64,000 nucleotides of DNA from Escherichia phage vB_EcoM_LNA4. Made by a program: the position numbers and the translations under genes. The stretch's first letter is position 1. Each line of letters starts with the position of its first letter. Below, one piece after another: positions 3,609 to 54,129 of the stretch. Under the pieces are notes generated by a model. It was not told where the DNA came from and made no database searches. It was given only the letters and a program-made list of their open reading frames with translations. The stretch is from sequence record MZ311864.1; one strand, written 5' to 3'.

Positions 3609-4253
3609 ATGGTAGTATATTCCTACACACCGATGATCAGGTCTTCTGACGGTAAATACCCAGTATATCTTACTGATTTCAGGGCAGACAACCCTAACGT
3701 CAGCATTGGTACTTGGGTTTACTCAGAGAACATTGCAGAGTTCGGATATTTTCCGGTGATCCCTGTGACACCGCCAACTGGTGATGTTGTCATGGAAGGA
3801 CCTCCTGAATTTAACGACCAAACCCAGCAATGGGAACAGACATGGACATCTCGTGATTTCTTACCTGAAGAAATTGCTGCGAATCTCGAATCTGCAAAGC
3901 AGAGTAAGAAAGCAGAGGCACAGAACGTCCTCTCCCGCGATGTTGATTTAGGTATTCCATACCCGGTTGGTAACGTTGAGTATAAAGTCAGAGTGAAAAG
4001 CTTCGACCTCGCAACCCTTCTTACAATCAAATCGGTGCTGGATTCAGATGGTGACCAAAGCTCTGAAGTATATCCGTTCAGATTCCTTGATGGATATAAA
4101 TCAGACTTTACACACGCTGAAATGAAAGACCTTGTGATTCAGGTTTCTCGTGCTCAGTATGGTTTAATGAAGTCTTACTGGGCGTATCTTGATCAGGTCG
4201 AGCAGGCAACTACTCTACAAAATATCCCTGCACTCCCAGATTCATTCCTGTAA
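3609..4253 (+). CDS. hypothetical structural protein
   Basis: 214 aa ORF with AAGGAG RBS, tightly packed in structural block. Confidence 0.55.
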   Translation: MVVYSYTPMIRSSDGKYPVYLTDFRADNPNVSIGTWVYSENIAEFGYFPVIPVTPPTGDVVMEGPPEFNDQTQQWEQTWTSRDFLPEEIAANLESAKQSKKAEAQNVLSRDVDLGIPYPVGNVEYKVRVKSFDLATLLTIKSVLDSDGDQSSEVYPFRFLDGYKSDFTHAEMKDLVIQVSRAQYGLMKSYWAYLDQVEQATTLQNIPALPDSFL

Positions 4254-4262
4254 GGAGTTGTC

Positions 4263-4814
4263 ATGGTAGCTGCAACAACGGGTGTTGGTGGTATAGTTTA
4301 TGGTAGGACTCTTGTTAGCCAAAAAACTGGCAAGAAAATAGATTTTGATGATATTGGTGTGATGACCAGCAGGGTTAAGTCAGAATGTTATTTCACTGGT
4401 CTTAACCTTGTTATTCAAACAACCCCTGTAAATCTGATAAGTCTTATAAAATCTTTACCGCATACAGGTTCGTTATCCCCATTCTTTAATACAACAACCA
4501 ATAAGTTGAATGTTTTTAATGAGGATGCGACCTGCGACTTCAAATTGAACGTTGCCGGATCTTGGGGAGGCTCTACAGGCAATAGAAGCATGACCGTAGA
4601 TTTCCCACAGACAAACGGCAACTCACTGACAAAGACAAGAGATGCTCAAGTAACCTCTGACATCCTTTCTTTCCCTACCTTCTTCAGTGTTGACAAAGGT
4701 GGTAACATTGCGACTAACGGTACAGACATAACAATAGTCTCTAACGGGTCCAATTTTACGATCACATCGCTGTTGATTATAGCTGAACAAATCATACCGA
4801 CCACAATGGTCTAA
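4263..4814 (+). CDS. hypothetical structural/fibre-like protein
   Basis: 183 aa ORF, RBS AAGGAG, Thr/Asn/Gly-rich. Confidence 0.5.
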   Translation: MVAATTGVGGIVYGRTLVSQKTGKKIDFDDIGVMTSRVKSECYFTGLNLVIQTTPVNLISLIKSLPHTGSLSPFFNTTTNKLNVFNEDATCDFKLNVAGSWGGSTGNRSMTVDFPQTNGNSLTKTRDAQVTSDILSFPTFFSVDKGGNIATNGTDITIVSNGSNFTITSLLIIAEQIIPTTMV

Positions 4815-4834
4815 CCTCTAAAGGAGAAATAAAT

Positions 4835-5134
4835 ATGGCAACTTCTGGTGTAGCTGGTCTGCTTTACGCAACTAAACTCATCGACCTCGGTACTGGACAA
4901 TCCATCAGCGTTGCTGATATTATCTCAGGATCTGGTGGCGGTGGTTCAGTAGCTTGGGCCGACATCACAGGTAAACCAACCACTTTCGCACCTGTGGCAG
5001 CAACCACAAGCGTAGTTGGTGGTGTTAAGATGGCAGCAACCCAGGCAAACAGCACAGCAACTGATGCCGCTGGTCTGGTTACTGACTTCAACGCCTTGCT
5101 TGCAAAACTTAAAGCCGCTGGTATTATGGCGTAA
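4835..5134 (+). CDS. Gly-rich small fibre-like protein
   Basis: 99 aa; AAGGAG RBS; motif WADITGKPTTFAP resembles fibre proteins. Confidence 0.5.
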   Translation: MATSGVAGLLYATKLIDLGTGQSISVADIISGSGGGGSVAWADITGKPTTFAPVAATTSVVGGVKMAATQANSTATDAAGLVTDFNALLAKLKAAGIMA

Positions 5135-5138
5135 TCAA

Positions 5139-5164
5139 GAGGCCCTTCGGGGCCTTTTATTTTA
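5139..5164 (+). terminator. rho-independent terminator (UUCG loop)
   Basis: GGCCC-TTCG-GGGCC followed by ttttatttt. Confidence 0.7.
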
Positions 5165-5561
5165 GGAGTGGCCTAACACCCGCTTCCATGTTCACGTTTA
5201 CCATTGGCTCTTTACCATCTTTGTAATATGTGCAGATGTATGCCCCCTTAAAACCTTGGGTCCCATACAGGATTGCAACATCATTCAAATATTGATACCC
5301 CTCTGTTTGTTCCGTGATTTCATTCATCTCTCCGGTCTGCACTACAGATACACCGGGTTTAAATGCCTTACGAAATGCTTGATCGCAAGAGAGCCGCACA
5401 AGACGATGAATGCTCGCTGTCTTTTCTTCTTTTGATAACCAGCTTGTCTCGATAGATCTTAGGTTGTCTTGGTCTGGGTGCTTCATGATATAGGTGGTAG
5501 TGACCAAAGCTGCAACAACAGCACCAACAACCAATGCAACAATTCCCTTAGTATTCTTCAT
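5157..5561 (-). CDS. membrane-anchored protein encoded opposite to the structural genes (moron-like)
   Basis: 134 aa ORF on minus strand with N-terminal hydrophobic helix (IVALVVGAVVAALV), flanked by terminator and AT-rich promoter region. Confidence 0.5.
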   Translation of the reverse strand: MKNTKGIVALVVGAVVAALVTTTYIMKHPDQDNLRSIETSWLSKEEKTASIHRLVRLSCDQAFRKAFKPGVSVVQTGEMNEITEQTEGYQYLNDVAILYGTQGFKGAYICTYYKDGKEPMVNVNMEAGVRPLLK

Positions 5562-7850: not shown

Positions 7851-9263
7851 ATGGCTTATAATGATAAGGTGGTTGACGTTACGGTCACGCTTGGTACTCA
7901 ACCAATCGACACCAAAGGGTTTGAAACCCCGCTGTTCCTGGCTATCCACAACGTCTTCCCTGAACGTTTTCGCGCCTATACCGAACTCGATCAGCTAGTA
8001 GATGATGGATTCGCTCCAGGTTCCCCAGCTTATGTCTTCGCAACAAAAGCATTCGCTGGTACATTCCGTCCTCAGTACCTGATGGTTGGTCGTCAAGGCT
8101 TCACTAATACCATCGTGGACTTCACTGGACAGGTAAATACCGACCCTGAAGCGCCTGTAGCCCTGAACGTAGTTTCCGGTGCTTATCAGACCAGCGTTAT
8201 CGTGGCGGTAACTGGTGCATCCACCCCAACCAGTATTGCTACCGCTCTGGCAGCATCTCTGAATGGTGATGCAACACTGACCACTGTTTTAACTGCAACC
8301 GCCAGCGCAGGTGTGGTAACAATCGCTCCTAAGAATGGTGGTGCATTCAGCGTCGGTCGCGATAGCGGAAACATGACTATCAGCAACACCTCTGGTGAAA
8401 CTGTGTCCTCTGTTCTTCCTCAGATCCTGACTGCAACTGAGAACTGGTACTTCCTGAGCACCGAGTCTCACACCAACGCATCCATCCTGGCTGCTGCTGC
8501 ATTTGCTTCTGCTAACTACAAGCTGCATGTGTATGCAACCGCCGATGAACTGGTTAAAACTGCTGGTAGCAACTCCATTGCTAACCAACTGAAAGCCCTC
8601 CAGTACGATACTTCTATCGGTATGTATGATCCGCTTGCGGATAGCGCATTCTCTGAAGGTGGTATCATCGGTGCAATGGCTTCCAACGATCCTTCTTACG
8701 GTGACTCTATTCACCTGAAGACAATGGAAGGTGTGATTGCTCCTACCCTGAGCGCTACCGACCGTATGACCATTTGGGGACAAAACTTGAACTTCTACCG
8801 TATGATTAACGGTGTTGGTTCCTTCTACGAAGGTAAGTGTGCTTCTGGCAACTACGTAGACGTTGTTCGTTTCGGTCACTGGCTGAAGTTCCGCACAGAA
8901 GAGAGCGTGTTTGGTTACATGTCTCGTCGTTCTAACATGGGTCTCTCCATGAAGATGAGTGATGACGATCTGCCAAACCTGAAGTCCGTGATGATGAACA
9001 ACCCAATCAACGTTGGCATCACCAACGGCTCTATCCTGACGGGATATGATGACGTAAACAAAGTGTTCTACGATCCGGTGATCACAATCCCGCTTCGTGC
9101 AAACATCCCGACTAACGATCTGGCTGCTCGTACTCTGAACAATGTGAAAGTGGAACTTGTGTACAACACACCACTGCACTTCGTTAAGATCCGCATGACC
9201 GTTCTGTTAGATAAAACAGGGTCTAGTTCCGGAAACGGTCAGACTGTAACAGCAGGAGTGTAA
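7851..9263 (+). CDS. tail sheath protein
   Basis: 470 aa ORF first in the order sheath-tube-chaperone-tape measure typical of myoviruses. Confidence 0.6.
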   Translation: MAYNDKVVDVTVTLGTQPIDTKGFETPLFLAIHNVFPERFRAYTELDQLVDDGFAPGSPAYVFATKAFAGTFRPQYLMVGRQGFTNTIVDFTGQVNTDPEAPVALNVVSGAYQTSVIVAVTGASTPTSIATALAASLNGDATLTTVLTATASAGVVTIAPKNGGAFSVGRDSGNMTISNTSGETVSSVLPQILTATENWYFLSTESHTNASILAAAAFASANYKLHVYATADELVKTAGSNSIANQLKALQYDTSIGMYDPLADSAFSEGGIIGAMASNDPSYGDSIHLKTMEGVIAPTLSATDRMTIWGQNLNFYRMINGVGSFYEGKCASGNYVDVVRFGHWLKFRTEESVFGYMSRRSNMGLSMKMSDDDLPNLKSVMMNNPINVGITNGSILTGYDDVNKVFYDPVITIPLRANIPTNDLAARTLNNVKVELVYNTPLHFVKIRMTVLLDKTGSSSGNGQTVTAGV

Positions 9264-9266
9264 TAA

Positions 9267-9740
9267 ATGAATACAGCTATCCTAACACCGTATGCTTACG
9301 ACCCTAAAAAAGTCAAGCTATACCTGATGACTCAGCGTGTTACTGGATTTGCCGCAGATACCAAGATCGTCGTTGCTCGTAACGAAGATAACATCATCCC
9401 CCACATGGGGGTTGATGGTGAGCTATCCGCTGCACTGTCCCGTAACCAATCTGGTGTTATGACAGTTTCCCTCCAGAACACCGCTTCTTGGAACGGAAAC
9501 TTCGCAAACTGGCAGAAACAAGCCTCCATCACCGGGCTGATCTTCTTCCCTGTCCTTCTTGAAGGTTCTCAGGGTATGGGTCTCAGCACTATCGGTTGGA
9601 TTCAGAAACAACCAGACCTGACCTACGGTACAGAAGTGGGCCAGATGGACTGGGAAATCGGTATCCTCGACGCTTGGTTAAGCCCAGATACTCTGTCTTC
9701 CGCAGGCTTCGGTCTTGCTGGTCTTGCAGGTATCGTATAA
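9267..9740 (+). CDS. tail tube protein
   Basis: 157 aa ORF immediately after sheath gene, GGAG RBS. Confidence 0.55.
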   Translation: MNTAILTPYAYDPKKVKLYLMTQRVTGFAADTKIVVARNEDNIIPHMGVDGELSAALSRNQSGVMTVSLQNTASWNGNFANWQKQASITGLIFFPVLLEGSQGMGLSTIGWIQKQPDLTYGTEVGQMDWEIGILDAWLSPDTLSSAGFGLAGLAGIV

Positions 9741-22263: not shown

Positions 22264-22288
22264 ACAAGGGGCTTCGGCCCCTTTTCTC
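22264..22288 (+). terminator. rho-independent terminator (GGGGC-UUCG-GCCCC)
   Basis: Hairpin followed by ttttctc. Confidence 0.75.
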
Positions 22289-22298
22289 ATTATAAGCC

Positions 22299-22327
22299 TT
22301 TATAATTAAATCACAATATGATAAAAT
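22299..22327 (+). promoter_or_regulatory. sigma70-like promoter candidate (TATAAT and TGaTAAAAT -10-like elements)
   Basis: AT-rich region between terminator and GTG-start gene. Confidence 0.4.
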
Positions 22328-22368
22328 AGCAACATCTTAGAGCAAAAATCTAGCAAGAGGAGGCGTTC

Positions 22369-23862
22369 GTGGCTGCTCAATATGGATTAAACGACTACGG
22401 CTTTGCGATCCCATCCCTTGATGATCTAATCGCAGATACAAAGCAGTCACTAATCCGAACTTTCGGTGAGAACTTCAACACACAGTCAAACACTATTGTT
22501 GATAAGCTTACCACAATTTTGAATGAAAGGGAGTACCAGTTAATCCTTCTGGCTGCGGCTGTGTATTCTGCACAGACCCTTGCAGGTGCTGAAGGTATTT
22601 ACCTGGATGAACTGCTTGGTCGTCGTGGTATTTATCGTCGTGGGAAAACAAGAGGCTCCGGTACGGTACAGATGGTTGTAAACAACACTGTGCCATACAA
22701 CATGATCTACAGTGCTGCAACATATAGCATCGACAGTGGCAACTTCGTACTTAACCAAGACACCCCGGTAGCTGGTAATATCCTTGCACAGCAAATCCTG
22801 AACCCGGACTGGGTGCTTGGTAACTACACCTTCCAGATGATGAACCAGAATGATGGTACAACTAAGACAATGGCCCTGACCCTGAGCAACAAAACGCCTA
22901 ACAGCGCTCAGATGAATGCCTTTATGTCTTCCATCAAAGACTTTATCATCCAGAACACCACGCAGTTAAACGAAGACAGAATCTTCATTGATTCTGCCAA
23001 CGGTGCTCTGTATATTGGTTATGATGCCAACAAAAAAATGATCGGTCTTAACAGCCGTGTTGATTTTCGTTCCTCCCCAGTTATCGGGCAGAGAACGATC
23101 ACGATGGATGTTATTGCCGCTGAAGCTGGTGAGATCTCTCGTGAAGCAAACACCGTAACAAACATCAGCCCAACCCCAAGTGGCTTTATCAGTATGACGA
23201 ACATGGCTGCATTTAACGATGGGTCAGACGTTGAAACCGATACAGACTACAAGGTCCGTGCTGCTAACAGTACAGCCGCTGGCGCTGCTGCTACCCGTCC
23301 TGCTGTCATCTCTGCTGTTCTTAACGTAGAGGGTGTCAGCAAGGTCCGTGTGTTCTCTAACAACACCGGATCAACGGATCAGTATGGTGTGCCTGCATAT
23401 AAGTTCGAAACTGTTGTGTATGGTGGTTCAACTGAGGATATCAGTCAAGCGCTTTATAACACAATTGCATTATCCAACGCAACCTATGGTAATGTCTTCT
23501 ATGATATCACCACAGAGGATGATCAGACAGAACGAATTTTCCACAGTAAGGCTCAGGCCCGTGAACTCGCACTTCGCGTTCGTTACAAAGGGAAACTTCT
23601 CTCAGTCACAGAGCAAAACACAATCAAAGATGCTTTGAAGGCAGTTGTTGATCCTTTAAACATCGCAGACACCCTGTACAACATTCAGTTGGTATCTGCG
23701 GTAGGTTCTTCAATCTCTCCTGGTCGATTCACTCAACTGTTTGTTGATGTAAAGAATGTTGGTCAACCAGACAGTTCCTACACAAACAGCGATGTGGTGG
23801 CCGGGATGACACAAGTCTTCGCACTGGATACAGACGACATCACCTTCCAGCAAATCATCTAA
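22369..23862 (+). CDS. baseplate J-like protein (gp6/gpJ family)
   Basis: GTG start with AGGAGG RBS; segment AEGIYLDELLGRRGIYRRGKTRGSGTVQMVV matches baseplate J-type pattern. Confidence 0.55.
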   Translation: MAAQYGLNDYGFAIPSLDDLIADTKQSLIRTFGENFNTQSNTIVDKLTTILNEREYQLILLAAAVYSAQTLAGAEGIYLDELLGRRGIYRRGKTRGSGTVQMVVNNTVPYNMIYSAATYSIDSGNFVLNQDTPVAGNILAQQILNPDWVLGNYTFQMMNQNDGTTKTMALTLSNKTPNSAQMNAFMSSIKDFIIQNTTQLNEDRIFIDSANGALYIGYDANKKMIGLNSRVDFRSSPVIGQRTITMDVIAAEAGEISREANTVTNISPTPSGFISMTNMAAFNDGSDVETDTDYKVRAANSTAAGAAATRPAVISAVLNVEGVSKVRVFSNNTGSTDQYGVPAYKFETVVYGGSTEDISQALYNTIALSNATYGNVFYDITTEDDQTERIFHSKAQARELALRVRYKGKLLSVTEQNTIKDALKAVVDPLNIADTLYNIQLVSAVGSSISPGRFTQLFVDVKNVGQPDSSYTNSDVVAGMTQVFALDTDDITFQQII

Positions 23863-23872
23863 CGAGGTAAGC

Positions 23873-24505
23873 ATGGCAGATTATCTAAAGGATGTCAACC
23901 ACATCCATACTCTGCCAGATTTCGTACAGGGTGGTATTGATTACCTCCCTGGCGATTTTCTGAAAGAGAAAGAAAACCTTGTCAAGTTCATGACGGTATA
24001 TCTCGAAAGACTTAAAGCAATTGACGAAATGTGGGTCAATCTGTCTGAAGGTAGATTACTGAAGAATGCAACTGGTGTCAACCTCGATGAGATTGGCAAG
24101 CAGGTGGGGATTGAGCGTAACGGTCTTAGCGATATGAACTATCGTGCGATCATCATCATCCTCCTTGCGAGTGCTGCGAAGCACGGTACAAGACCAGAGG
24201 TTATTGACACACTTGACCAACTGTTCGGGACAGGAAATTTCACCACGTATAAGGGTGACAACTACCGTTTCGACATTAACATTTCAAAGACGTGTTTTGA
24301 ATTGGAGACAGCCCTCCAGGAAATCCAAGACATGTTGCCTATGCCTACCCACCTGAGACTCACAGAGTCCAGCGGTACGGCTTTTGGTTTCTCAGGCGAT
24401 AAGTATGCACTTGGGTTTGGTTCAGTCCACTCAGGTGGTCGTACAGGTGAAGGTGGCCTTGCACACCTGACATATACGTCTGATGAAGAGAATACCTTGA
24501 TTTAA
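23873..24505 (+). CDS. putative baseplate wedge protein (P2 gpI-like position)
   Basis: 210 aa ORF between baseplate J-like gene and tail fibre gene. Confidence 0.4.
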   Translation: MADYLKDVNHIHTLPDFVQGGIDYLPGDFLKEKENLVKFMTVYLERLKAIDEMWVNLSEGRLLKNATGVNLDEIGKQVGIERNGLSDMNYRAIIIILLASAAKHGTRPEVIDTLDQLFGTGNFTTYKGDNYRFDINISKTCFELETALQEIQDMLPMPTHLRLTESSGTAFGFSGDKYALGFGSVHSGGRTGEGGLAHLTYTSDEENTLI

Positions 24506-24516
24506 GGGAGATAGCA

Positions 24517-25629
24517 ATGGCAGCGCCAACAGTACCTATTGAAATTTGGGCCTATGGGAACATTGTCCTCCCTAATACCCACGAGTTAAACAAATCCCGT
24601 CCTATTGATGACCTTTGGAACAAAGGTTGGGACATGGGTGAAAAACCTTCTTGCGAAGAGTTCAACTATGTGCTAAACATGGTTACGGCATGGGCCAAGT
24701 ACATCACTGGTGAACAGATCCCCGCTCTTGATAGCCGATTCCTACGTGTTACTCAGAACTTGGCTGATGTACCCAACAAGGCCACTGCTCGTACAAACCT
24801 CGATGTGTGGAGCAAGGGAGAGTCCGACACGCGTTATGTGAATGTGTCTGGTGACACCATGACCGGGAACCTTTCTGTTCCTCGTTTAGATTTGCAGGCA
24901 TCTTCTTCTGACTTTGCCTACATCACCACAACTAACCCAGCATCTGACTGGACATACTTTGATTTTGTTCTTGGTGATAATCCAGGGACGGCAGGGTCTT
25001 CCGGTGTTGATACAATGCGTTTCCGCTTCACACCTTCTGGTGGCAGCATCTTTAACATGATGGAGCTGAACGCTATCAGCGCCACTGCTGCCCTGTGTCG
25101 TGTAACAGGTAACATCATCGCGAGCGGAAGTATTCAGGGTTCTTCAATGACAGCAACCTCTGCAACTTTCACGAACGGTACAGTAAGCAACACCTGGACG
25201 GTAAACACCCTCCAGTCAACAACAACCCGTGCGACCAACGTTGTGGCTACAAACAACGTATCCACCGGGACACTGAACGTAAGCTCAACAACCACAACTG
25301 CTAACCTTGTTGTCCAGAACAACAGTGCAACGGTTGGTGGTCGTCACGTTGTCCGTGCTGTGAACGGTAACACTGCTGATGGTAACGGTAACGTAACAAT
25401 CTCCCTGCCTCCGCAAGGTGTTCAGGATGTTCGTCTGGGTTCAGAGATCTCTACGAACCGTTATTCTCTTGGTGGTGAATCCTTTGTGTATCGTGCGCCT
25501 GGGGGATGTGTTGTGACAGGTTTCAACATCTGGTCAAAATCTGGTAACAACGATGAATTCCGCGATATGTATTCTCGCCCAATCCAGAAGTATATCAACG
25601 GCGGTTGGTACACAATCGGACAGCTCTAA
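24517..25629 (+). CDS. tail fibre protein
   Basis: 370 aa; N-terminal fibre-type motif (DDLWNKGWDMGEKP...EEFNYVLNMVTAWAKYI), Thr/Asn/Val-rich shaft. Confidence 0.6.
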   Translation: MAAPTVPIEIWAYGNIVLPNTHELNKSRPIDDLWNKGWDMGEKPSCEEFNYVLNMVTAWAKYITGEQIPALDSRFLRVTQNLADVPNKATARTNLDVWSKGESDTRYVNVSGDTMTGNLSVPRLDLQASSSDFAYITTTNPASDWTYFDFVLGDNPGTAGSSGVDTMRFRFTPSGGSIFNMMELNAISATAALCRVTGNIIASGSIQGSSMTATSATFTNGTVSNTWTVNTLQSTTTRATNVVATNNVSTGTLNVSSTTTTANLVVQNNSATVGGRHVVRAVNGNTADGNGNVTISLPPQGVQDVRLGSEISTNRYSLGGESFVYRAPGGCVVTGFNIWSKSGNNDEFRDMYSRPIQKYINGGWYTIGQL

Positions 25630-25640
25630 CAGGAGGCTAA

Positions 25641-26156
25641 ATGGTACACCTTAAGAATGTGGAGATCTATACTCCTGAGAAAGTACCTGAAGAACTCGCA
25701 ACCTACGGGGTGATGTTCTTTAGATCTGAGGATGGTCAGGATTTCTACGAGGCCATCAAAGACATGAAAGAAGACACAATGAAGGTCTTATACGCAGATG
25801 GTATTGTAACAGGGTTTTCCCTTGATGCAAGCTCTCTGTATCCACCGGGTGCCTCTCTCGTTGAGGTCCCTCTGGATAAAGTCCCTGCGGATCTTGAACT
25901 TGGTCGGAAATATCTCTTTGATGCAAAGACTCTCAAATTCAAAGTCAACCCTGACTTCTTGACAAGAGATCTTGACATCCAGAAGCAAAACCTACTGGCG
26001 CTGGCGAACGATAAGATCGCCCAGTATCAGGATAAGGTGGATCTGGAGACCGCTACCAAGGGAGAGGTAACCGCCCTTAAGAACTGGAAAGCCTATAGAA
26101 TCAAAGTTCGTGAAGCGACTGACGTGGGTTCTCTACCAAAACAACCACGCGTGTAA
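25641..26156 (+). CDS. tail fibre assembly protein (Tfa-like)
   Basis: 171 aa after fibre gene; C-terminal pattern ALKNWKAYRIKVREATDVGSLPKQP typical of Tfa chaperones. Confidence 0.6.
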   Translation: MVHLKNVEIYTPEKVPEELATYGVMFFRSEDGQDFYEAIKDMKEDTMKVLYADGIVTGFSLDASSLYPPGASLVEVPLDKVPADLELGRKYLFDAKTLKFKVNPDFLTRDLDIQKQNLLALANDKIAQYQDKVDLETATKGEVTALKNWKAYRIKVREATDVGSLPKQPRV

Positions 26157-26165
26157 GGAGCTACC

Positions 26166-26480
26166 ATGTCCATTGATCTATTTGCTATCCTGAAAGCTGT
26201 CTGGGGCGTTGTCACGTTTGTCCTGATTGGTGTCCTTAGAATCACATACTCCGATTACAAAAAAACGCAAGAACGCCTTGATGAACTTGATAAAGATATC
26301 ATAAGGATTAAGGCAGAGATGGTCACAAAAGAGAAACTGGATGAGATTCTGGATAAGAAACTCAAGACTGTTCGTGATGACGTTTCAGAATTGCGTAAGG
26401 ACATCAAAGAAGACGTGGGTGATCTGAGAGCAGACCTGAGCAATCAGTTTAAAATGCTCATGGAGCGTCAACTTAGATGA
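26166..26480 (+). CDS. membrane protein with coiled-coil domain
   Basis: 104 aa; N-terminal helix LFAILKAVWGVVTFVLIGVL then charged coiled coil. Confidence 0.5.
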   Translation: MSIDLFAILKAVWGVVTFVLIGVLRITYSDYKKTQERLDELDKDIIRIKAEMVTKEKLDEILDKKLKTVRDDVSELRKDIKEDVGDLRADLSNQFKMLMERQLR

Positions 26481-26950
26481 TAAGTTCAGCACTGTATTTT
26501 ATTTGCTTTGCAGTGCTGCTGCTTAACGCTGACAAGGGAATACGGATCATGTCGATTTTTGGTATGATCCATATTCTTTTAGAGAATGCACTGTACTGGT
26601 GGTTCTCTGCTCACGGCGTTTATTTTGATTTGTCGTTGTATATGACCCTGTGTTGGTTGCTCGACATCGCCCTTTTATTCGGTACAGCGTGTGTATTGTC
26701 GGGATGGAAGAAGAAGTTGACACTTTCAGTGTCAGTTCCGATACTCTTCTGCCAGATAATAGTCATGCAATTTCCATTCCTCTTACCCTTTGCATTGAAC
26801 TTTGTCATCAACTCGTCATATCAGTCCTTAATGGAAGTGCTGATCCTTTGCGCCTCTTTCAAGGATAACACAATCAAAGAGTGGATAAAAACTGCAACAG
26901 TGGTAAGCCTCGTGGTTCTTGCAAGGTTCCTACCCATGTTAGTTCATTGA
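26477..26950 (+). CDS. polytopic membrane protein
   Basis: 157 aa with 4-5 hydrophobic segments; ATGA overlap with upstream gene. Confidence 0.5.
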   Translation: MISSALYFICFAVLLLNADKGIRIMSIFGMIHILLENALYWWFSAHGVYFDLSLYMTLCWLLDIALLFGTACVLSGWKKKLTLSVSVPILFCQIIVMQFPFLLPFALNFVINSSYQSLMEVLILCASFKDNTIKEWIKTATVVSLVVLARFLPMLVH

Positions 26951-26965
26951 GAATCTTGAGGAAAT

Positions 26966-27235
26966 ATGTTAAAATCAATAATGAAATTTTTGAAGGATCT
27001 CGTTAGGTCACCAGTTGATCCGGCGAAGGCCTCACACACAAAGTTCTGGAGCAATATCGGCCTGGCATCTATGACCGCAGTATTCCTCTATTGGGGATTC
27101 AAAGGCACGTTGACAGAGTGGTACATGTGGGTTTATGCACCCACTGTTGCTGCACCGCAACTTATCAGCAAACTCATCTCTCTCCGCTGGGGCGTAACAG
27201 AAGCCCAGCGCGAAGATCAAAAGTCAGACCAATAA
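26966..27235 (+). CDS. small membrane protein
   Basis: 89 aa with hydrophobic segments. Confidence 0.45.
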   Translation: MLKSIMKFLKDLVRSPVDPAKASHTKFWSNIGLASMTAVFLYWGFKGTLTEWYMWVYAPTVAAPQLISKLISLRWGVTEAQREDQKSDQ

Positions 27236-27245
27236 GGAGACTCTT

Positions 27246-29054
27246 GTGGCAGATATGACTCAATTTGAACAGGCTGTTGATCAGGTCATCGAAGACTCTG
27301 AACGCCTGCACAAAGTTGTCAACGGAACGGCTTCTGAAACTGTTGTTACTGAAGATGGTAGCACCATCCCAACAGTTCGTAAAGCACTTCTCGACAACTT
27401 ATTTTTCAAGACACCGCCTATTCCTTGGGTAGCCGGGTCTCAGGCAACGGTCTTTAACCAGCTTTACGCATTCAACGGTACAAATGGTATCCAGTGGTGG
27501 TATGCACCTGGTGCAACAGCAACCACCCCTGTAACCCTGCCTGCAAACCCATCTACCAGTGTAAGCTGGAGACTGTATAATGATGCGGCTGCGATGGCTT
27601 CCATCTATGCCCCTATCAACAGCCCGATCCTGACTGGTAACCCGCAGGCACCTACCCCTGCTGCTAACAGCAACAGCACCACGATTGCAACAACAGCCTT
27701 TGTGACAACAGCAATTGCAAGCGCACTGTCCAGCATCTCTGGTGGTAGCGTTACTTTTGCAAACGTAACTGTCTCTGGGGCAACAACACTGAATACCCTT
27801 ACCGTCAACGGCACAACTACGTTAAACGGTCCGGTGAACGCAGACAACTCTACGGGTCGTTTCCAGAACCTGATCTTGACTAAGCAGGCCTCCAGCCTGA
27901 CATTTGTCTACACAGATGCTGCTAACCCGACATTCTTCAAGACACGTCTTGATCCTTACGCGATCCAGACCCATAACCTGCAAACAGACATTATTGTCAA
28001 CGGTACAGTTTCCGCTGATGACACCACAATGTCAATGACGGGTGTTGGTAACAACGTCTTCGATTATGTTTATATTCGCGGTAATAACGCGAAAGATATC
28101 TCTGCTCCACGACTGAAAGTTTCAGGGATGACTGAGGTAGAGAACCTTCACATCACAGGCTCTGTAACTGGTTTAAGCTTCAGTGTAAATGGCTTAGATA
28201 TCAGCCCTAACTCTGTAACAACCACAGCAGGTATCACCGTAGGTTCCGATCTGCAAGTGAACGGGTCTGCAACGCTGGGGAACACCACGGTTTCAAGTCT
28301 TGAAGTGATCAATACCCTGAAGGTAGATGGTTCTACAACGCTTGTTGACTTCACAGCTTCAAGTGGTACAATCACAGGGCCTTTCACTGTCGGGGGACTA
28401 AGCAACCTGAATGGTGGTTTCACTACAGGATCAGCCAACGGTACAATCGGCGGCAACCTTTCTGTAACCGGATCAACAGAGCTTCTTTCTGGTCTGAATG
28501 TAACTGGCGATGTTGCGATCACTGGTAACCTATCAGCGACTGGCGATGTCAACCTGAATAACGGTTCCGGAACAACAACTGTCAACAACCTTGTGATCCA
28601 AGGTACTGTGACAGGGCTTACTGTTGACCTGACCGGACAATCCATCAGTGTGGCATCCTTGACCGCAACAGGATCTGTGACGACAGCAACACTGACTGTT
28701 CAGGATAGTGCAGACCTTCCTAATGCCCGTGTTGGATTCTTGACGCTGGTTGCGGAAGATGTTGAGAGTTCCACTGCGAACTGGACCCCAAGCGGGACAT
28801 CCAACATCTATACGGTTCTGGTTGACGCAGACCTGACAATCGGTGCATGGCCTTCTCCACCTAACGCATTCTCTGCAATGATTTACCTGACGCAGGATGC
28901 AACCGGAGGACACACGGTAACACTCGACCCTAACTATCTGGTGCTTAACAGCGAAACAATTAACCAGACAGCAGGGTCTGTGACTATTCTTCAACTTACC
29001 TACAACGGGGTTGAAGATGGGGTTATCGACACAGTGATTGTTCGTCGTCCATAA
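27246..29054 (+). CDS. long tail fibre protein
   Basis: 602 aa; GTG start with AAGGAG RBS; fibre repeat motif SPILTGNPQAPTPAANSNSTTIATTAFV; Thr/Asn/Gly-rich. Confidence 0.7.
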   Translation: MADMTQFEQAVDQVIEDSERLHKVVNGTASETVVTEDGSTIPTVRKALLDNLFFKTPPIPWVAGSQATVFNQLYAFNGTNGIQWWYAPGATATTPVTLPANPSTSVSWRLYNDAAAMASIYAPINSPILTGNPQAPTPAANSNSTTIATTAFVTTAIASALSSISGGSVTFANVTVSGATTLNTLTVNGTTTLNGPVNADNSTGRFQNLILTKQASSLTFVYTDAANPTFFKTRLDPYAIQTHNLQTDIIVNGTVSADDTTMSMTGVGNNVFDYVYIRGNNAKDISAPRLKVSGMTEVENLHITGSVTGLSFSVNGLDISPNSVTTTAGITVGSDLQVNGSATLGNTTVSSLEVINTLKVDGSTTLVDFTASSGTITGPFTVGGLSNLNGGFTTGSANGTIGGNLSVTGSTELLSGLNVTGDVAITGNLSATGDVNLNNGSGTTTVNNLVIQGTVTGLTVDLTGQSISVASLTATGSVTTATLTVQDSADLPNARVGFLTLVAEDVESSTANWTPSGTSNIYTVLVDADLTIGAWPSPPNAFSAMIYLTQDATGGHTVTLDPNYLVLNSETINQTAGSVTILQLTYNGVEDGVIDTVIVRRP

Positions 29055-29057
29055 TAT

Positions 29058-29088
29058 CAGGGGCTGTCTTCGGACAGCCTTTTCTTTA
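29058..29088 (+). terminator. rho-independent terminator (UUCG loop)
   Basis: GGCTGTC-TTCG-GACAGCC followed by ttttcttt. Confidence 0.75.
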
Positions 29089-29098
29089 GGAGGTTTTA

Positions 29099-30802
29099 AT
29101 GTTTCCTATTCCAAGCCTGTTCCTGCTAATGGCGGGTGGTGGTACAACACCCCTACCTCCTGGCGGGGTGAAAAAGATCGCTTTCTCCAGAGAACAAACA
29201 ACTGGTGTAAAAAGGTCTATGGCTATTCTTCTAACAGACGGAAGACTATACACCCAAGGTGATAACGCGTGGGGTGAATGTGCAGACGGAACAACAAGCC
29301 CGTTCTACGACCACTGGAAACTCGCTGCAAGTAATGTAGCAGATGTTTTCGGTGTTGGGAAGGCTTTTGTAGTAAAATATAATAATGGTGGCTGGCAGTA
29401 TGCGGGGGACCAAGGACAATTTACAGGTGTCACCTCTAACATGATGGCGTGGACAAGTTTCCCATCCTCAATCACAGGGACTGTGAACCTTGCAAACCTC
29501 TCCAGTGTTATTGGTGGGGGTGGTAACACGTTGTGGTTGATGAACAATGGAACGCTGTATGGTAGCGGGTCCAATGCGAATGGGTGCCTTGGGTCAGGAA
29601 ACAGTAACTCAATCTCTATCCCAAGAACCATCAGCACCTCTTGTGTCAGGGCATACGGTCTACAGGCCTGTACTACATACCTCAACAACGTCGGTGTTCC
29701 TCGTGTCTGCGGTTCTCCATACGGGATCAATGGCTCGTTTGTTGCTATTATGAGTTATGCAAACGTAACGTTCCCAGGTGCCACAGGAACAATCTACGCA
29801 AAAGAGTGGATGTGTAACGAATCAAACACCATCGCCATTGCCTCCACCGGGGCATCAGACACAGATCACTATCTGTATACTCGTGGTATCACAACCAGTA
29901 ATGGTGCATACGAGAAAGTTGCCGGGTTTGGGCCTTTCACAACCTTCCGTGTGATCGAGGGCGGTCAGTCAAGATTCTTTATCGCTGATGATGTTTTATA
30001 TGCTCTTGGTGATTCACAGCGTACCCTTGGGCTTGGAGACACCACAACAGCGGTAACTGTGCCGACTGTTATCCCTGTGCCTACCGGGGCAGATTGGGAC
30101 CTTAGCAAGCTGACTTACGTGGCTGACATGAAAGGCGATAACCTGTCACAAGGTGGGACTATCGGGCACTGGATAGTTTATGATGGGAACCTATTCTACA
30201 CTGGGAGCGCAAAAGGATTCTTCGGGACCACAACCTCTGTCGGTAAGTTCACCAACGTTCCAGAGAACTCTTTCGAGGGTATCCGTGCCGACTCTATCAC
30301 AACAGGATCAATTGGCGTGGCGATTGTTGGTACTACGAAACAGCTTACGTGGTCTATTGATCCACCGGGGGCTGAAATCTATGACCTACAGTTTAGCTCA
30401 AGTCATCCAGAGTTTGCAACAATTGATGCGAATGGGCTTATGACCTTCGTTGCTGAGGGGGGTTTTGACATCACCATGACGGCGAAGACAGGGACAAGCG
30501 CAACAACCTTGACAGATACTTCAGGGGGTTATGCTTCAACACTTGGAATGGCTACTGATAGCCTTTCTGCGATGACTGTCGGTGAGACAAAACAGCTTGT
30601 TTATACGGTAACACCAGCGGGTGTTGAGAACCTTGACGGGTACTCTATCTCCTTCTCCAGTGAAGACCCAACGGTTGCGACAGTAAGCTCTACCGGGCTG
30701 ATCACAGCAGTTGCTGATGGTGGGACTCGTATCCATGCGACGGCAGCGGTCCAGACCGTAACAGCAGACGATAGCTCTTATCTGTCAGTGAACGCACCAT
30801 AA
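29099..30802 (+). CDS. RCC1-like repeat protein with two C-terminal Ig-like (Big_2-type) domains
   Basis: 567 aa; repeats like YTQGDNAWGECADG and LYGSGSNANGCLGSG; two similar Ig-like modules at C-terminus; AGGAGG RBS. Confidence 0.55.
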   Translation: MFPIPSLFLLMAGGGTTPLPPGGVKKIAFSREQTTGVKRSMAILLTDGRLYTQGDNAWGECADGTTSPFYDHWKLAASNVADVFGVGKAFVVKYNNGGWQYAGDQGQFTGVTSNMMAWTSFPSSITGTVNLANLSSVIGGGGNTLWLMNNGTLYGSGSNANGCLGSGNSNSISIPRTISTSCVRAYGLQACTTYLNNVGVPRVCGSPYGINGSFVAIMSYANVTFPGATGTIYAKEWMCNESNTIAIASTGASDTDHYLYTRGITTSNGAYEKVAGFGPFTTFRVIEGGQSRFFIADDVLYALGDSQRTLGLGDTTTAVTVPTVIPVPTGADWDLSKLTYVADMKGDNLSQGGTIGHWIVYDGNLFYTGSAKGFFGTTTSVGKFTNVPENSFEGIRADSITTGSIGVAIVGTTKQLTWSIDPPGAEIYDLQFSSSHPEFATIDANGLMTFVAEGGFDITMTAKTGTSATTLTDTSGGYASTLGMATDSLSAMTVGETKQLVYTVTPAGVENLDGYSISFSSEDPTVATVSSTGLITAVADGGTRIHATAAVQTVTADDSSYLSVNAP

Positions 30803-30836
30803 CAAAAAGGCTCCCAATCGGGAGCCTTTCTTTTTA
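30803..30836. terminator. bidirectional rho-independent terminator
   Basis: aaaaa-GGCTCCC-aatc-GGGAGCC-tttctttttat between converging + and - transcription units. Confidence 0.8.
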
Positions 30837-53378: not shown

Positions 53379-53552
53379 CTATTTGCAGTTATTTATGGGG
53401 TTTCTTTTGCGAGCCTTCCGCACGATGTAGATACCTGCCAGCAGGCCAAGAGCGTAAGCTCCAGACACTTGCTCCCAGAACATCCATTGAGTTAAAGACA
53501 GTATCACAAGATATGGGATAATGCAAACACAAAGTAGCAAAATACTCTTCAT
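53379..53552 (-). CDS. small membrane protein
   Basis: ATG at 53552 with AGGGAG RBS; hydrophobic. Confidence 0.35.
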   Translation of the reverse strand: MKSILLLCVCIIPYLVILSLTQWMFWEQVSGAYALGLLAGIYIVRKARKRNPINNCK

Positions 53553-53556
53553 ACGT

Positions 53557-54087
53557 TCAGGCTCCCTGGGATTCAGGCTTTTCTTTGTAGAAAATGTGGT
53601 TATCAATCCTTACAGTGCGAATCATAACTTTCGTCCAGTATGGCTTAACCTTCTTTGAGTGATAATACGTAGAACCCTTAGTGATGTCAAGGGCATCGTA
53701 AACAATTTTATTGGTCGTGTGGACTTTGATCAGAAATGAGGCGAACTCCTTTGCCTTTTCCCAGCGTTCCTTTTCATACACTTTGAAAGAAGAACTTCCG
53801 GATGTCCAGGAGAATTGTCCAGACTGATAAACGATCTTCTTCACGGTGTGTGGGAACTTATCGTTGTCCTTGCGGTTCAGGGTAACAAAGGCGATAGACA
53901 TCATCCCAGAGTCGCTCTCACCACGGGCTTCACGATACATATTACATGCCAAGATATTTACCGCTGAGTCATCTTTTTTGCAGAGATGAATCACCTTGGG
54001 CTTCTTTGCGTTGTCTTTAGCCAGTACAGGCGTGGTGGCTAGAGAAAAAGCACAGGCGGTTGCCAGAATAAGGTTCTTTACTTTCAA
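53557..54087 (-). CDS. secreted SleB/CwlJ-like cell wall hydrolase (candidate endolysin)
   Basis: TTG start at 54087 with GGAG RBS; signal peptide KVKNLILATACAFSLATTPVLA; motif NMYREARGE...MMSIAFVTLNR...YQSGQFSWTSG. Confidence 0.65.
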   Translation of the reverse strand: MKVKNLILATACAFSLATTPVLAKDNAKKPKVIHLCKKDDSAVNILACNMYREARGESDSGMMSIAFVTLNRKDNDKFPHTVKKIVYQSGQFSWTSGSSSFKVYEKERWEKAKEFASFLIKVHTTNKIVYDALDITKGSTYYHSKKVKPYWTKVMIRTVRIDNHIFYKEKPESQGA

Positions 54088-54101
54088 ATTACGCTCCAAA
54101 T

Positions 54102-54124
54102 TAAAAAGCCCCAGGGTAGGGGCT
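54102..54124 (-). terminator. rho-independent terminator (minus strand)
   Basis: AGCCCC-tacccu-GGGGCU followed by UUUUU on the minus-strand transcript. Confidence 0.6.
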
Positions 54125-54129
54125 ATCAA

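Follow-up and report, generated by a model that had tools for sequence, protein, structure and literature searches.

The subject of this work is a group of three adjacent membrane-protein genes, here called P1, P2 and P3, which lie between tail-fibre genes in a stretch of 64,000 nucleotides (hereafter the window) from Escherichia phage vB_EcoM_LNA4 (sequence record MZ311864.1), an rV5-like phage of the subfamily Vequintavirinae. On balance we favour the reading that the trio is a late-expressed lysis-control module of the inner membrane, placed inside the baseplate and tail-fibre operon in a T4-like position, and that P3, judged from its sequence relatives, is probably the holin of the rV5-like phages. 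The evidence that carries this reading is that P3-like proteins occupy the holin slot of Mu-like lysis cassettes.

Based on this model, expression of the late operon would yield P1, P2 and P3 along with the baseplate and fibre proteins. P3 would build up in the cytoplasmic membrane and, at a critical level or a set time, would permeabilise it, letting the soluble endolysin reach the cell wall, after which lysis would be completed by the spanins, whose genes adjoin the terminase gene, breaking the outer membrane. P1, with its N-terminal anchor and charged, putatively cytoplasmic tail, may act alongside P3 as a co-holin, a timing regulator or a releasin-like factor, and P2 may be an accessory polytopic protein, perhaps a regulator or an antiholin, that some lineages do not have. 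P1, together with P2 where it is present, would set or sharpen the timing of lysis.

P3 matches the phrog_1322 profile with its residues 4-88 over profile positions 2-85 of 87 (E 2.7e-32). With a profile made from the Vequintavirinae P3 sequences only, 94 representative clusters of proteins of 70-150 amino acids (aa) were retrieved at E <= 1e-3 from a database of 1.84 billion representative proteins. Among the superfamily members that were tested, 75 of 75 match phrog_1322 and five of the 75 match Pfam DUF2644, with E-values down to 2e-4; by sequence comparison P3 is related to the DUF2644 family and, by the Pfam test, is not a member of it. Two motifs are common to the family, SHTK(F/L)W(S/A)N(I/V)G ahead of helix 1 and SK(F/L)LSL(R/K)(Y/W)G behind helix 2.

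Relatives of P3 are found in Mu-like phages. In Ralstonia phage RS138 the gene order is GemA, Mor, the endolysin ORF26, the P3-like open reading frame (ORF) ORF27 and the Rz-like spanin ORF28, and in Pseudomonas phage Bise it is Mor, a Peptidase_M15_4 enzyme, the P3-like ORF of 80 aa, a 165-aa protein with a transmembrane domain (TMD) and a 92-aa protein with a TMD and a coiled coil, the region of these last two genes including a gene like that of an inner-membrane spanin (i-spanin). With the hidden Markov model (HMM) built from the Vequintavirinae sequences only, the RS138 and Bise homologues score 35 and 41 bits, respectively, and the reciprocal tblastn search from the Bise protein leads to GAP31_230, the counterpart of P3 in Cronobacter phage GAP31, with 37% identity over 72 aa and a database E-value of 1e-3. 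The Mu-like cassette proteins, which are homologous to P3 and agree with it in size, in the SHTKxWxN motif and in the two-helix layout, are flanked by endolysin and spanins, whereas P3 lies between tail-fibre genes.

The arrangement recurs in prophages, where a scan that covered a single genome for each bacterial species gave 46 betaproteobacterial loci with a P3-like gene. At 39 of the 46 a muralytic gene ends at most 403 bp upstream of the P3-like gene, the enzyme being GH108 (with PG_binding_3) at 16 loci, CHAP at 12, VanY/M15 at seven and Amidase_2 at four, and the representatives of all four enzyme classes have no N-terminal TMD. Downstream of the P3-like gene an i-spanin-like ORF is present at 31 loci and an ORF with a lipobox, within 900 bp, at 34, and an ORF having a TMD at its N-terminus plus a coiled coil stands at the position of Mu gp25 at 28. 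A small membrane protein that keeps a fixed position after interchangeable soluble endolysins and before spanins therefore shows the pattern of a holin gene, and the P3-like family occupies the holin slot of Mu-like lysis cassettes.

It is noted that in the Mu-like prophages of Neisseriaceae a further ORF of ~60 aa is found between the GH108 endolysin and the P3-like gene (e.g., locus positions 3753-3953 and 3771-3953), with a signal-like N-terminus and a poly-Lys/Arg C-terminus, which may encode another lysis peptide. Note also that three T4-distant phages, Stenotrophomonas phage Moby (~4960-5240, + strand), Acidovorax phage ACP17 (3438-3875) and Xanthomonas phage X1 (3417-3710; all in locus coordinates), carry a P3-like gene with an extra N-terminal TMD, as a lone opposite-strand gene between the DNA polymerase gene and the dUTPase/regA genes; the Moby copy has no annotation and lies over an ORF that is annotated on the other strand.

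P3 itself consists, according to hydropathy and an AlphaFold2 model, of an amphipathic N-terminal helix followed by two weakly hydrophobic helices at residues 24-45 and 51-74, and a two-helix topology with both termini in the cytoplasm (N-in/C-in) is predicted for it. It resembles the class II holins and pinholins of the phage 21 S68 type in its small size and predicted late expression, in the richness of its two helices in Gly, Ala, Ser and Thr and in its predicted N-in/C-in topology, with Met1-Lys3-Met6 being reminiscent of dual starts. It differs from them in having no family match, no Shine-Dalgarno sequence before Met6, no SAR (signal-anchor-release) endolysin next to it and a C-terminal tail that is slightly acidic. 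As to the start of the protein, P3 of Seunavirus and Mydovirus begins with Met1-Leu-Lys3-Ser-Ile-Met6 (window positions 26966-26983), a sequence that resembles the dual-start motif of holin and antiholin, and the proteins of the other genera start near Met6.

The second component, P1, has its hydropathy peak in residues 1-30 and contains 21 lysine or arginine (K/R) and 21 aspartate or glutamate (D/E) residues. Its tail of ~79 residues, 49% of which are D, E, K, R or H, is probably helical, as weak matches to coiled-coil families suggest. The N-terminal flank MSID has no K or R and four K/R lie within 16 residues after the TMD, and the same charge pattern surrounds the TMD in gp149 of phage phi92 and in 2L372X_075 of Aeromonas phage 2L372X. 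By the positive-inside argument P1 probably has its N-terminus outside and its C-terminus inside (N-out/C-in), with the tail in the cytoplasm. Gene 149 of phi92 (8927-9268 of its locus) is annotated as 'lipoprotein' with no lipobox being present, and its product combines an acidic N-terminus with a single TMD and a coiled coil.

The layout of P1 is close to those of two known lysis proteins. The releasin of phage Mu, gp25, is a protein of ~100 aa with an N-terminal TMD in the N-out/C-in orientation, some four residues in the periplasm and a helical tail in the cytoplasm. P1 is like it in architecture, with an N-terminal TMD, a predicted N-out/C-in orientation, few periplasmic residues and a tail of ~70-80 aa, and it is a protein of this kind that co-occurs with the P3-like gene at the 28 Mu-like loci mentioned above. 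P1 is unlike the releasin in not lying within five genes of an endolysin, and the endolysin on which the releasin acts is of the SAR type, whereas rV5-like phages have soluble main endolysins. The other known case is that of mycobacteriophages, where LysF1a, with two TMDs and N-in/C-in, and LysF1b, with one TMD, N-out/C-in and a charged tail, are genetically supported holin-like partners (PMC13056207). LysF1a is like P3, as predicted, in its ~80 aa, two TMDs and N-in/C-in topology, and P1 shares with LysF1b its length (104 aa; range 92-150), one N-terminal TMD, a predicted N-out/C-in orientation, basic residues after the TMD and the charged tail (49%; range 30-50%). By contrast, no sequence similarity between the two systems was reproduced (hhalign probability of 0.7% for the P3 family against gp34 and of 1.5% for P1 against gp35), and the mycobacteriophage genes belong to a lysin A/lysin B cassette, in phages whose hosts are of the Gram-positive type, and not to a tail-fibre operon. 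By analogy of layout, P1 probably works like the releasin and LysF1b proteins, and we claim no family membership for it.

For P2, the AlphaFold2 model is all-helical with 6-7 helices and a predicted local distance difference test (pLDDT) value of 80.5, and the annotators of Salmonella phage PVP-SE1 called four TMDs. Invariant polar or charged residues are present inside the helices (H32, E36, N37, D63, Q93, Q98 and E120). All 34 clusters of its homologues carry a precomputed PF26221 assignment, and the local Pfam copy gives no match for P2. The protein is absent from rV5 and was not seen in the stretch of phi92 that was examined. The position of P2 is taken in 2L372X by a polytopic membrane ORF of ~146 aa (~4530-4970 of the locus), which lies between genes 075 and 074 and is unannotated; its score against the P2 HMM is just 10.5 bits, which makes it either an analogue by position or a homologue at a very great distance. 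In some lysis cassettes, according to the paper on the mycobacteriophages (PMC13056207), the partner of the one-TMD protein is a four-TMD protein, which for P2 serves as an analogy only.

The three genes are real and conserved. The first-pass annotation, made from the sequence alone, had placed three genes at 26166-27235 between a tail-fibre chaperone and a long tail fibre and had described them as encoding a single-pass, a polytopic and a small membrane protein; these coordinates are exact, the flanking genes are identified by Caudo_TAP and PHROG matches, and the architectures agree with hydropathy and, for P2 and P3, with AlphaFold2 models. Each of the three proteins matches a separate PHROG across its full length (Table 1). 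The start of P2 overlaps the stop of P1 (ATGA), and Shine-Dalgarno sites precede P1 (AAGGAG) and P3 (GAGGAA). By tblastn, 222 phage records have a match to P1, 107 to P2 and 374 to P3. The counterparts are GAP31_228-230 and PVP-SE1 gp44, gp43 and gp42, annotated only as hypothetical membrane proteins, and scans of the trio with NCBIfam and PADLOC gave nothing significant. Over positions 25600-27300 the window shares 96.9% identity with Enterobacter phage EC152, 96.8% with Cronobacter phage GAP31, 91% with Escherichia phage 4MG and, across the two-thirds that align, ~86% with Salmonella phage PVP-SE1, all of these phages being of the genus Seunavirus within the Vequintavirinae (rV5-like myoviruses), and the source phage of the window is a Seunavirus that is ~97% identical to GAP31 and EC152.

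Table 1. Positions in the window of the trio, its neighbours, the predicted operon signals and the separate lysis-related genes.
Feature	Position	Strand	Description
GC-rich hairpin terminator, upstream operon boundary	22266..22283	both	7-bp stem, 5 GC pairs, T-run (terminator scan)
Late-promoter-like motif TGATAAAATA	22319..22328	+	41 nt upstream of baseplate-wedge gene
Tail-fibre assembly chaperone (directly before P1)	25641..26156	+	171 aa; Pfam Caudo_TAP E 2.8e-11; phrog_136 E 6.8e-43
P1	26166..26480	+	104 aa; phrog_5345 E 1.8e-49; single-pass membrane protein
P2	26477..26950	+	157 aa; phrog_7451 E 1.8e-79; polytopic inner-membrane protein
P3	26966..27235	+	89 aa; phrog_1322 E 2.7e-32; basic N-terminus, two-helix weakly hydrophobic hairpin
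Tail fibre (directly after P3)	27246..29054	+	602 aa; phrog_4549 E 3.7e-243; equivalent to PVP-SE1 gp41 and rV5 gp028
Strong terminator ending the operon	30806..30829	+	10-bp stem, 6 GC pairs, T-run; 4 nt past the stop of the 567-aa gene
Two-TMD ORF at the 3' end of the SleB-like gene	53379..53552	-	57 aa; basic C-terminal tail; CB7-type arrangement; rival holin/pinholin candidate
SleB-like cell-wall hydrolase	53557..54129	-	Pfam Hydrolase_2 E 7.7e-21; TIGR02869 E 3.5e-12; start codon uncertain

From these signals the trio is predicted to belong to a late operon at 22.3-30.8 kb. The operon (22369-30802) has nine genes, with the strong terminator after the ninth, and at the equivalent place terminators are annotated in PVP-SE1. 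The motif TGATAAAATA is one mismatch from the core TGGTAAAATA of the rV5 late promoter; the window has 6 such matches where 4.3 are expected, which does not exceed chance, and it is the position alone that is suggestive. In rV5 a late promoter, P036, lies at the equivalent position, before gp036, and another, P030, just upstream of gp030-gp029 (rV5 Table S4). The trio is separated from its neighbours by gaps of 9-15 nt or overlaps, and this intergenic space therefore leaves the trio without room for promoters of its own. It had been said in the earlier annotation that no muralytic enzyme is adjacent, and indeed no muralytic domain was found in the eight operon proteins scanned (23873-30802); the first operon gene (22369-23862), upstream of the scanned part, has relatives annotated as baseplate wedge. 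The product of the last gene (29099-30802) is 567 aa long and contains RCC1-like repeats along with two Big_2 domains; it matches phrog_11922 (tail protein) and diverges fast, with 57% identity to PVP-SE1.

This location is like that of the T4 gene t, a late gene directly downstream of the tail-fibre and chaperone genes (37-38-t) and apart from the endolysin and the spanins. The likeness is one of position: P1-P3 have no sequence relationship to T and no match to any holin family of Pfam, and T4 T is a protein of 218 aa with one TMD, N-in/C-out topology and a large periplasmic domain, a layout present in none of P1-P3. With tblastn, T4 T matched 1980 records, and among the best 25 of these there was no real Vequintavirinae match, one 141-kb Escherichia phage record giving only a 25-residue match under an exonuclease gene.

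In the available virion data sets the proteins of the trio behave as non-virion proteins. Tandem mass spectrometry of phage CB7 confirmed the five flanking structural proteins and detected neither the chaperone nor the three membrane proteins. The multidimensional protein identification of rV5 gave 19 proteins, including gp30, gp32 and gp33, with gp29 and gp31 not among them, and in the cryo-electron microscopy (cryo-EM) model of phi92 (2026) gp134-139, gp145-146, gp143 and gp147 are assigned and gp144 and gp149 are not. The first-pass annotation had held that a finding of the proteins in virions would speak against its proposals, and in these two virion proteomes and the cryo-EM model they are not found; as membrane proteins are hard to detect, this absence is supportive and is not a proof.

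The lysis genes already known in the group leave a place for a holin. The spanins of the relatives adjoin the large terminase gene (CB7_252/253, conserved in rV5 and PVP-SE1; LL12 gp65/66; PVP-SE1 gp77/78), with PVP-SE1 gp78 having the basic N-terminus and TMD of an i-spanin and gp77 the lipobox LVGC of an outer-membrane spanin. The endolysins are among the early or middle genes and have no signal sequence (PVP-SE1 gp146 and the rV5 endolysin, with locus tag rv5_gp085, called 'Gp89' in the rV5 paper). Since the main endolysins have no signal sequence, the rV5-like phages need a canonical holin. The authors of LL12 located endolysin and spanins but were unable to identify a holin; those of rV5 nominated gp129; and those of CB7 nominated a 65-aa ORF that overlaps the SleB-like gene and was proposed to be a class II holin. 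The published candidates are thus different lineage-specific small ORFs, none of which is positively identified. In the 64-kb window no homologue of PVP-SE1 gp146 or of the PVP-SE1 spanins was found. Of the lysis components that had been offered for the trio, holin or spanin type, the holin is supported for P3, as we infer from the slot in Mu-like cassettes and from the group having no identified holin, and plausibly for P1.

The trio had also been linked in the first-pass annotation with the hydrolase at 53.5 kb, and this pairing may be mis-assigned: the SleB-like enzyme has its own export signal, an N-terminal signal or SAR-like segment (KVKNLILATACAFSLATTPVLAKD), and its own two-TMD neighbour. 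A longer ORF with a TTG start (53379-53606) overlaps the SleB-like gene. Only 59 phage records, from Seunavirus and Mydovirus, have a detectable match to the CB7-type candidate, against 374 for P3, and the PVP-SE1 homologue of this two-TMD ORF is gene 244; taking PVP-SE1 gp120/gp121 for the SleB-like pair was found to be wrong. The endolysin of the genus that has been studied experimentally, of the PVP-SE1 gp146 type, is encoded outside the window. The SleB-like hydrolase is a candidate for a separate lysis-related function, not a shown partner of the trio.

A number of observations weigh against the reading of the trio as a lysis-control module. P3 is weakly hydrophobic, with no 19-residue window reaching a Kyte-Doolittle value of 1.3, and the PVP-SE1 annotators predicted one TMD for its counterpart. 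Its AlphaFold2 model is of low confidence (pLDDT 59) and too weak for a fold search. Its C-terminal tail is charged but slightly acidic (net ~-1), unlike the basic tail of many holins, and it has no match to any Pfam holin family, nor to DUF2644 (PF10841) even at E <= 10. The holin assignment in Mu-like cassettes is one by position, and the P3 family, in these cassettes as in the rV5-like phages, is known from sequence alone. In the window, the P3 gene is not clustered with endolysin or spanin genes, although such clustering is not obligatory for a holin because T4 t stands apart, and it is the rival holin candidate that adjoins the SleB-like hydrolase. Tail-fibre and baseplate genes alternate with these genes in rV5 and phi92, a pattern that a morphogenetic role would fit too. 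P2 has no informative homologue or fold match (Pfam, NCBIfam, PADLOC and fold searches).

The assignments of P1 to known families count on the same side. As a DUF2730 protein (PF10805) it scores 13.5 bits (E 0.08) against a cutoff of 24.9, with Mu gp25 scoring 50.4 bits, and four other P1 homologues match only assorted coiled-coil families and not DUF2730; the hhalign probability of the P1 family against Mu gp25 is 2.4%. As a protein of DUF2746 (PF10874), the family to which LysF1b belongs, it has no match at E <= 10, with Che8 gp35 scoring 49.6 bits and the hhalign probability against gp35 being the 1.5% given above; WP_016054494.1, which is 99% identical to P1, bears the NCBI name 'DUF2746 domain-containing', and this assignment is not reproducible. 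Against a Mu-like family of proteins with a TMD and a coiled coil, hhalign gives P1 a probability of 77%, above 300 column shuffles; the match scores 33.6 against 27.6 for the reversed-alignment control, a difference of 6 points, and we treat it as probable coiled-coil periodicity.

The gene order and the rates of divergence in the relatives bear both on the lysis-control module and on its alternatives. The order Tfa (chaperone), P1, P2, P3, fibre is kept in Certrevirus (CB7_32-36) and also in 2L372X, of an unrelated genus, where the middle polytopic ORF is the unannotated one mentioned above. In rV5 a tail-fibre gene stands in place of P2, giving gp031, gp030 and gp029, and in phi92 the P3 homologue gp144 precedes the baseplate-wedge gene and the P1-type gp149 follows the chaperone. 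Homologues or analogues of P1 follow the Tfa gene as rV5 gp031, CB7_33, phi92 gp149 and 2L372X_075. The identity of P3 to its counterparts in PVP-SE1, a Klebsiella-phage-like contig, CB7, rV5, phi92 and 2L372X is 88, 82, 60, 53, 34 and 38%, respectively; that of baseplate J is 92, 77, 55, 32 and 47% in the same relatives except rV5, in whose locus the gene is cut off; and that of the chaperone is 33, 25, 27, 27 and 25% for the first five, with no match in 2L372X. P3 thus diverges about as the baseplate proteins do, P1 and P2 somewhat faster and the chaperone far faster than all three, and P3 evolves like a core gene, being kept in phages with differing fibres whose hosts are Escherichia, Salmonella, Klebsiella, Cronobacter, Pectobacterium and Aeromonas. 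A scan of viral contigs with the P3 alignment gave no new context, all long matches being to rV5-like contigs, mostly of 80-153 kb, and a few short fragments could not be placed.

One alternative, which we consider unlikely, is that the trio serves superinfection exclusion or membrane protection of the Imm or Sie type, blocking DNA entry or the membrane damage caused by a secondary phage; a variant, that it keeps the progeny from being lost on debris, is to us just as unlikely. Small inner-membrane exclusion genes are known near tail or receptor-binding genes (T5 llp, HK97 gp15 and lambdoid cor), and the neighbourhood of the trio is such a place. The PHROGs category of phrog_1322 is 'moron, auxiliary metabolic gene and host takeover', some lineages dispense with P2, and the P3-like gene of Moby, ACP17 and X1 lies beside the DNA polymerase gene, T4 imm too lying roughly by the DNA polymerase gene. 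By contrast, exclusion is most useful early, and the trio lies in a predicted late structural operon whose gaps of 9-15 nt have no room for early promoters. Moreover, P3 has a baseplate-like rate of divergence and is retained in phages of different hosts and with different fibres, there is no PADLOC or other family match, and the Mu-like context is a lysis cassette, not an early or accessory region. The suggestion of an exclusion or receptor-modifying module, also made in the first-pass annotation, is accordingly disfavoured by the late operon and the baseplate-like divergence, least so for P2.

Another alternative is that the three proteins are membrane-anchored morphogenesis factors, which tether or chaperone the assembly of fibres or baseplate and stay behind when the virion is done. 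The positions of the genes fit it well, with P1 always after the chaperone gene and P3 always before a fibre or baseplate-wedge gene, even where the two are split as in rV5 and phi92. Moreover, P3 co-evolves with the baseplate core, the long, putatively cytoplasmic and helical tail of P1 could bind fibres, and the non-virion status would suit a chaperone. If this alternative were true, however, it would not be expected that the remote homologues of P3 lie in Mu-like lysis cassettes, far from tail genes, or between replication genes as in phages of the Moby type. To our knowledge, no tail-fibre assembly pathway requires an integral membrane protein. We thus regard the morphogenetic role as rather improbable.

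Of much lower probability is the modification of the receptor or envelope, with P2 as a polytopic enzyme or flippase, such as a GtrA-like modifier of the O-antigen, and P1 and P3 as helpers. The invariant polar and charged residues inside the helices of P2, as in enzymes and transporters, and the adjoining receptor-binding genes would agree with it, but P2 has no significant match in Pfam, NCBIfam or PADLOC, GtrA included, a virulent phage with late genes would have little time for surface conversion, and no glycosyl- or acyl-transferase partner is present among the scanned operon genes. Lastly, a spanin-type system, with P1 as the i-spanin and a neighbour as its outer-membrane partner, was rejected as scarcely credible: although one TMD followed by a long helical domain makes P1 superficially like Rz, the relatives encode a genuine spanin pair next to the large terminase gene (PVP-SE1, CB7 and LL12), the MSID terminus free of positive charge and the K/R after the TMD point to N-out/C-in, opposite to an i-spanin, no + strand ORF of at least 30 aa lies inside P1, and no lipobox is seen by eye in P2 or P3, so that a lipoprotein partner is missing.

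Within the favoured reading of the trio as a lysis-control module, a wider proposal can be made, which we put forward as a doubtful possibility. P3 and P1 may represent an ancient holin system of two components, a two-helix N-in/C-in protein and a one-helix N-out/C-in protein with a charged cytoplasmic tail, that would be common to Mu-like phages, where it lies in the lysis cassette, and to the whole supergroup of rV5, phi92 and Plateaulakevirus, where it would have moved to the tail-fibre operon. Such a system would be a parallel to the LysF1a/LysF1b pair of mycobacteriophages, for which there is genetic proof. If so, the DUF2730 'releasin' of the holin-less phage Mu might be the surviving half of such a pair, and phrog_1322/DUF2644 might be a large unrecognised holin family that includes the holin of Vequintavirinae and Stephanstirmvirinae.

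If the assignment of P3 is true, the candidate would fill a gap in annotation, namely the lysis timing gene of Vequintavirinae and Stephanstirmvirinae, phages that are widely used in therapy and biocontrol, and engineering of lysis timing and burst size would become possible. It would also give a function to phrog_1322/DUF2644, a family that hundreds of phage genomes and many prophages of betaproteobacteria carry. In addition, the co-occurrence with a one-TMD, N-out/C-in protein with a charged tail would link the Mu releasin, LysF1b and the trio under one idea of two-component control of permeabilisation.

Finally, we note two points on the database records in which these genes are found. Between 15 and 21 records of the series MG0656xx ('Campylobacter phage', 135-143 kb), labelled as Campylobacter jejuni phage, carry the P1 and P3 genes, with the same identity as is found in E. 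coli Vequintavirus genomes, which makes the host label look doubtful. Under Staphylococcus haemolyticus, proteins are deposited that are identical to GAP31 proteins (MCC3722196/7), one of them bearing the NCBI name 'DUF2746 domain-containing', an assignment that was not reproduced; their presence there is probably due to phage contamination of the assembly.

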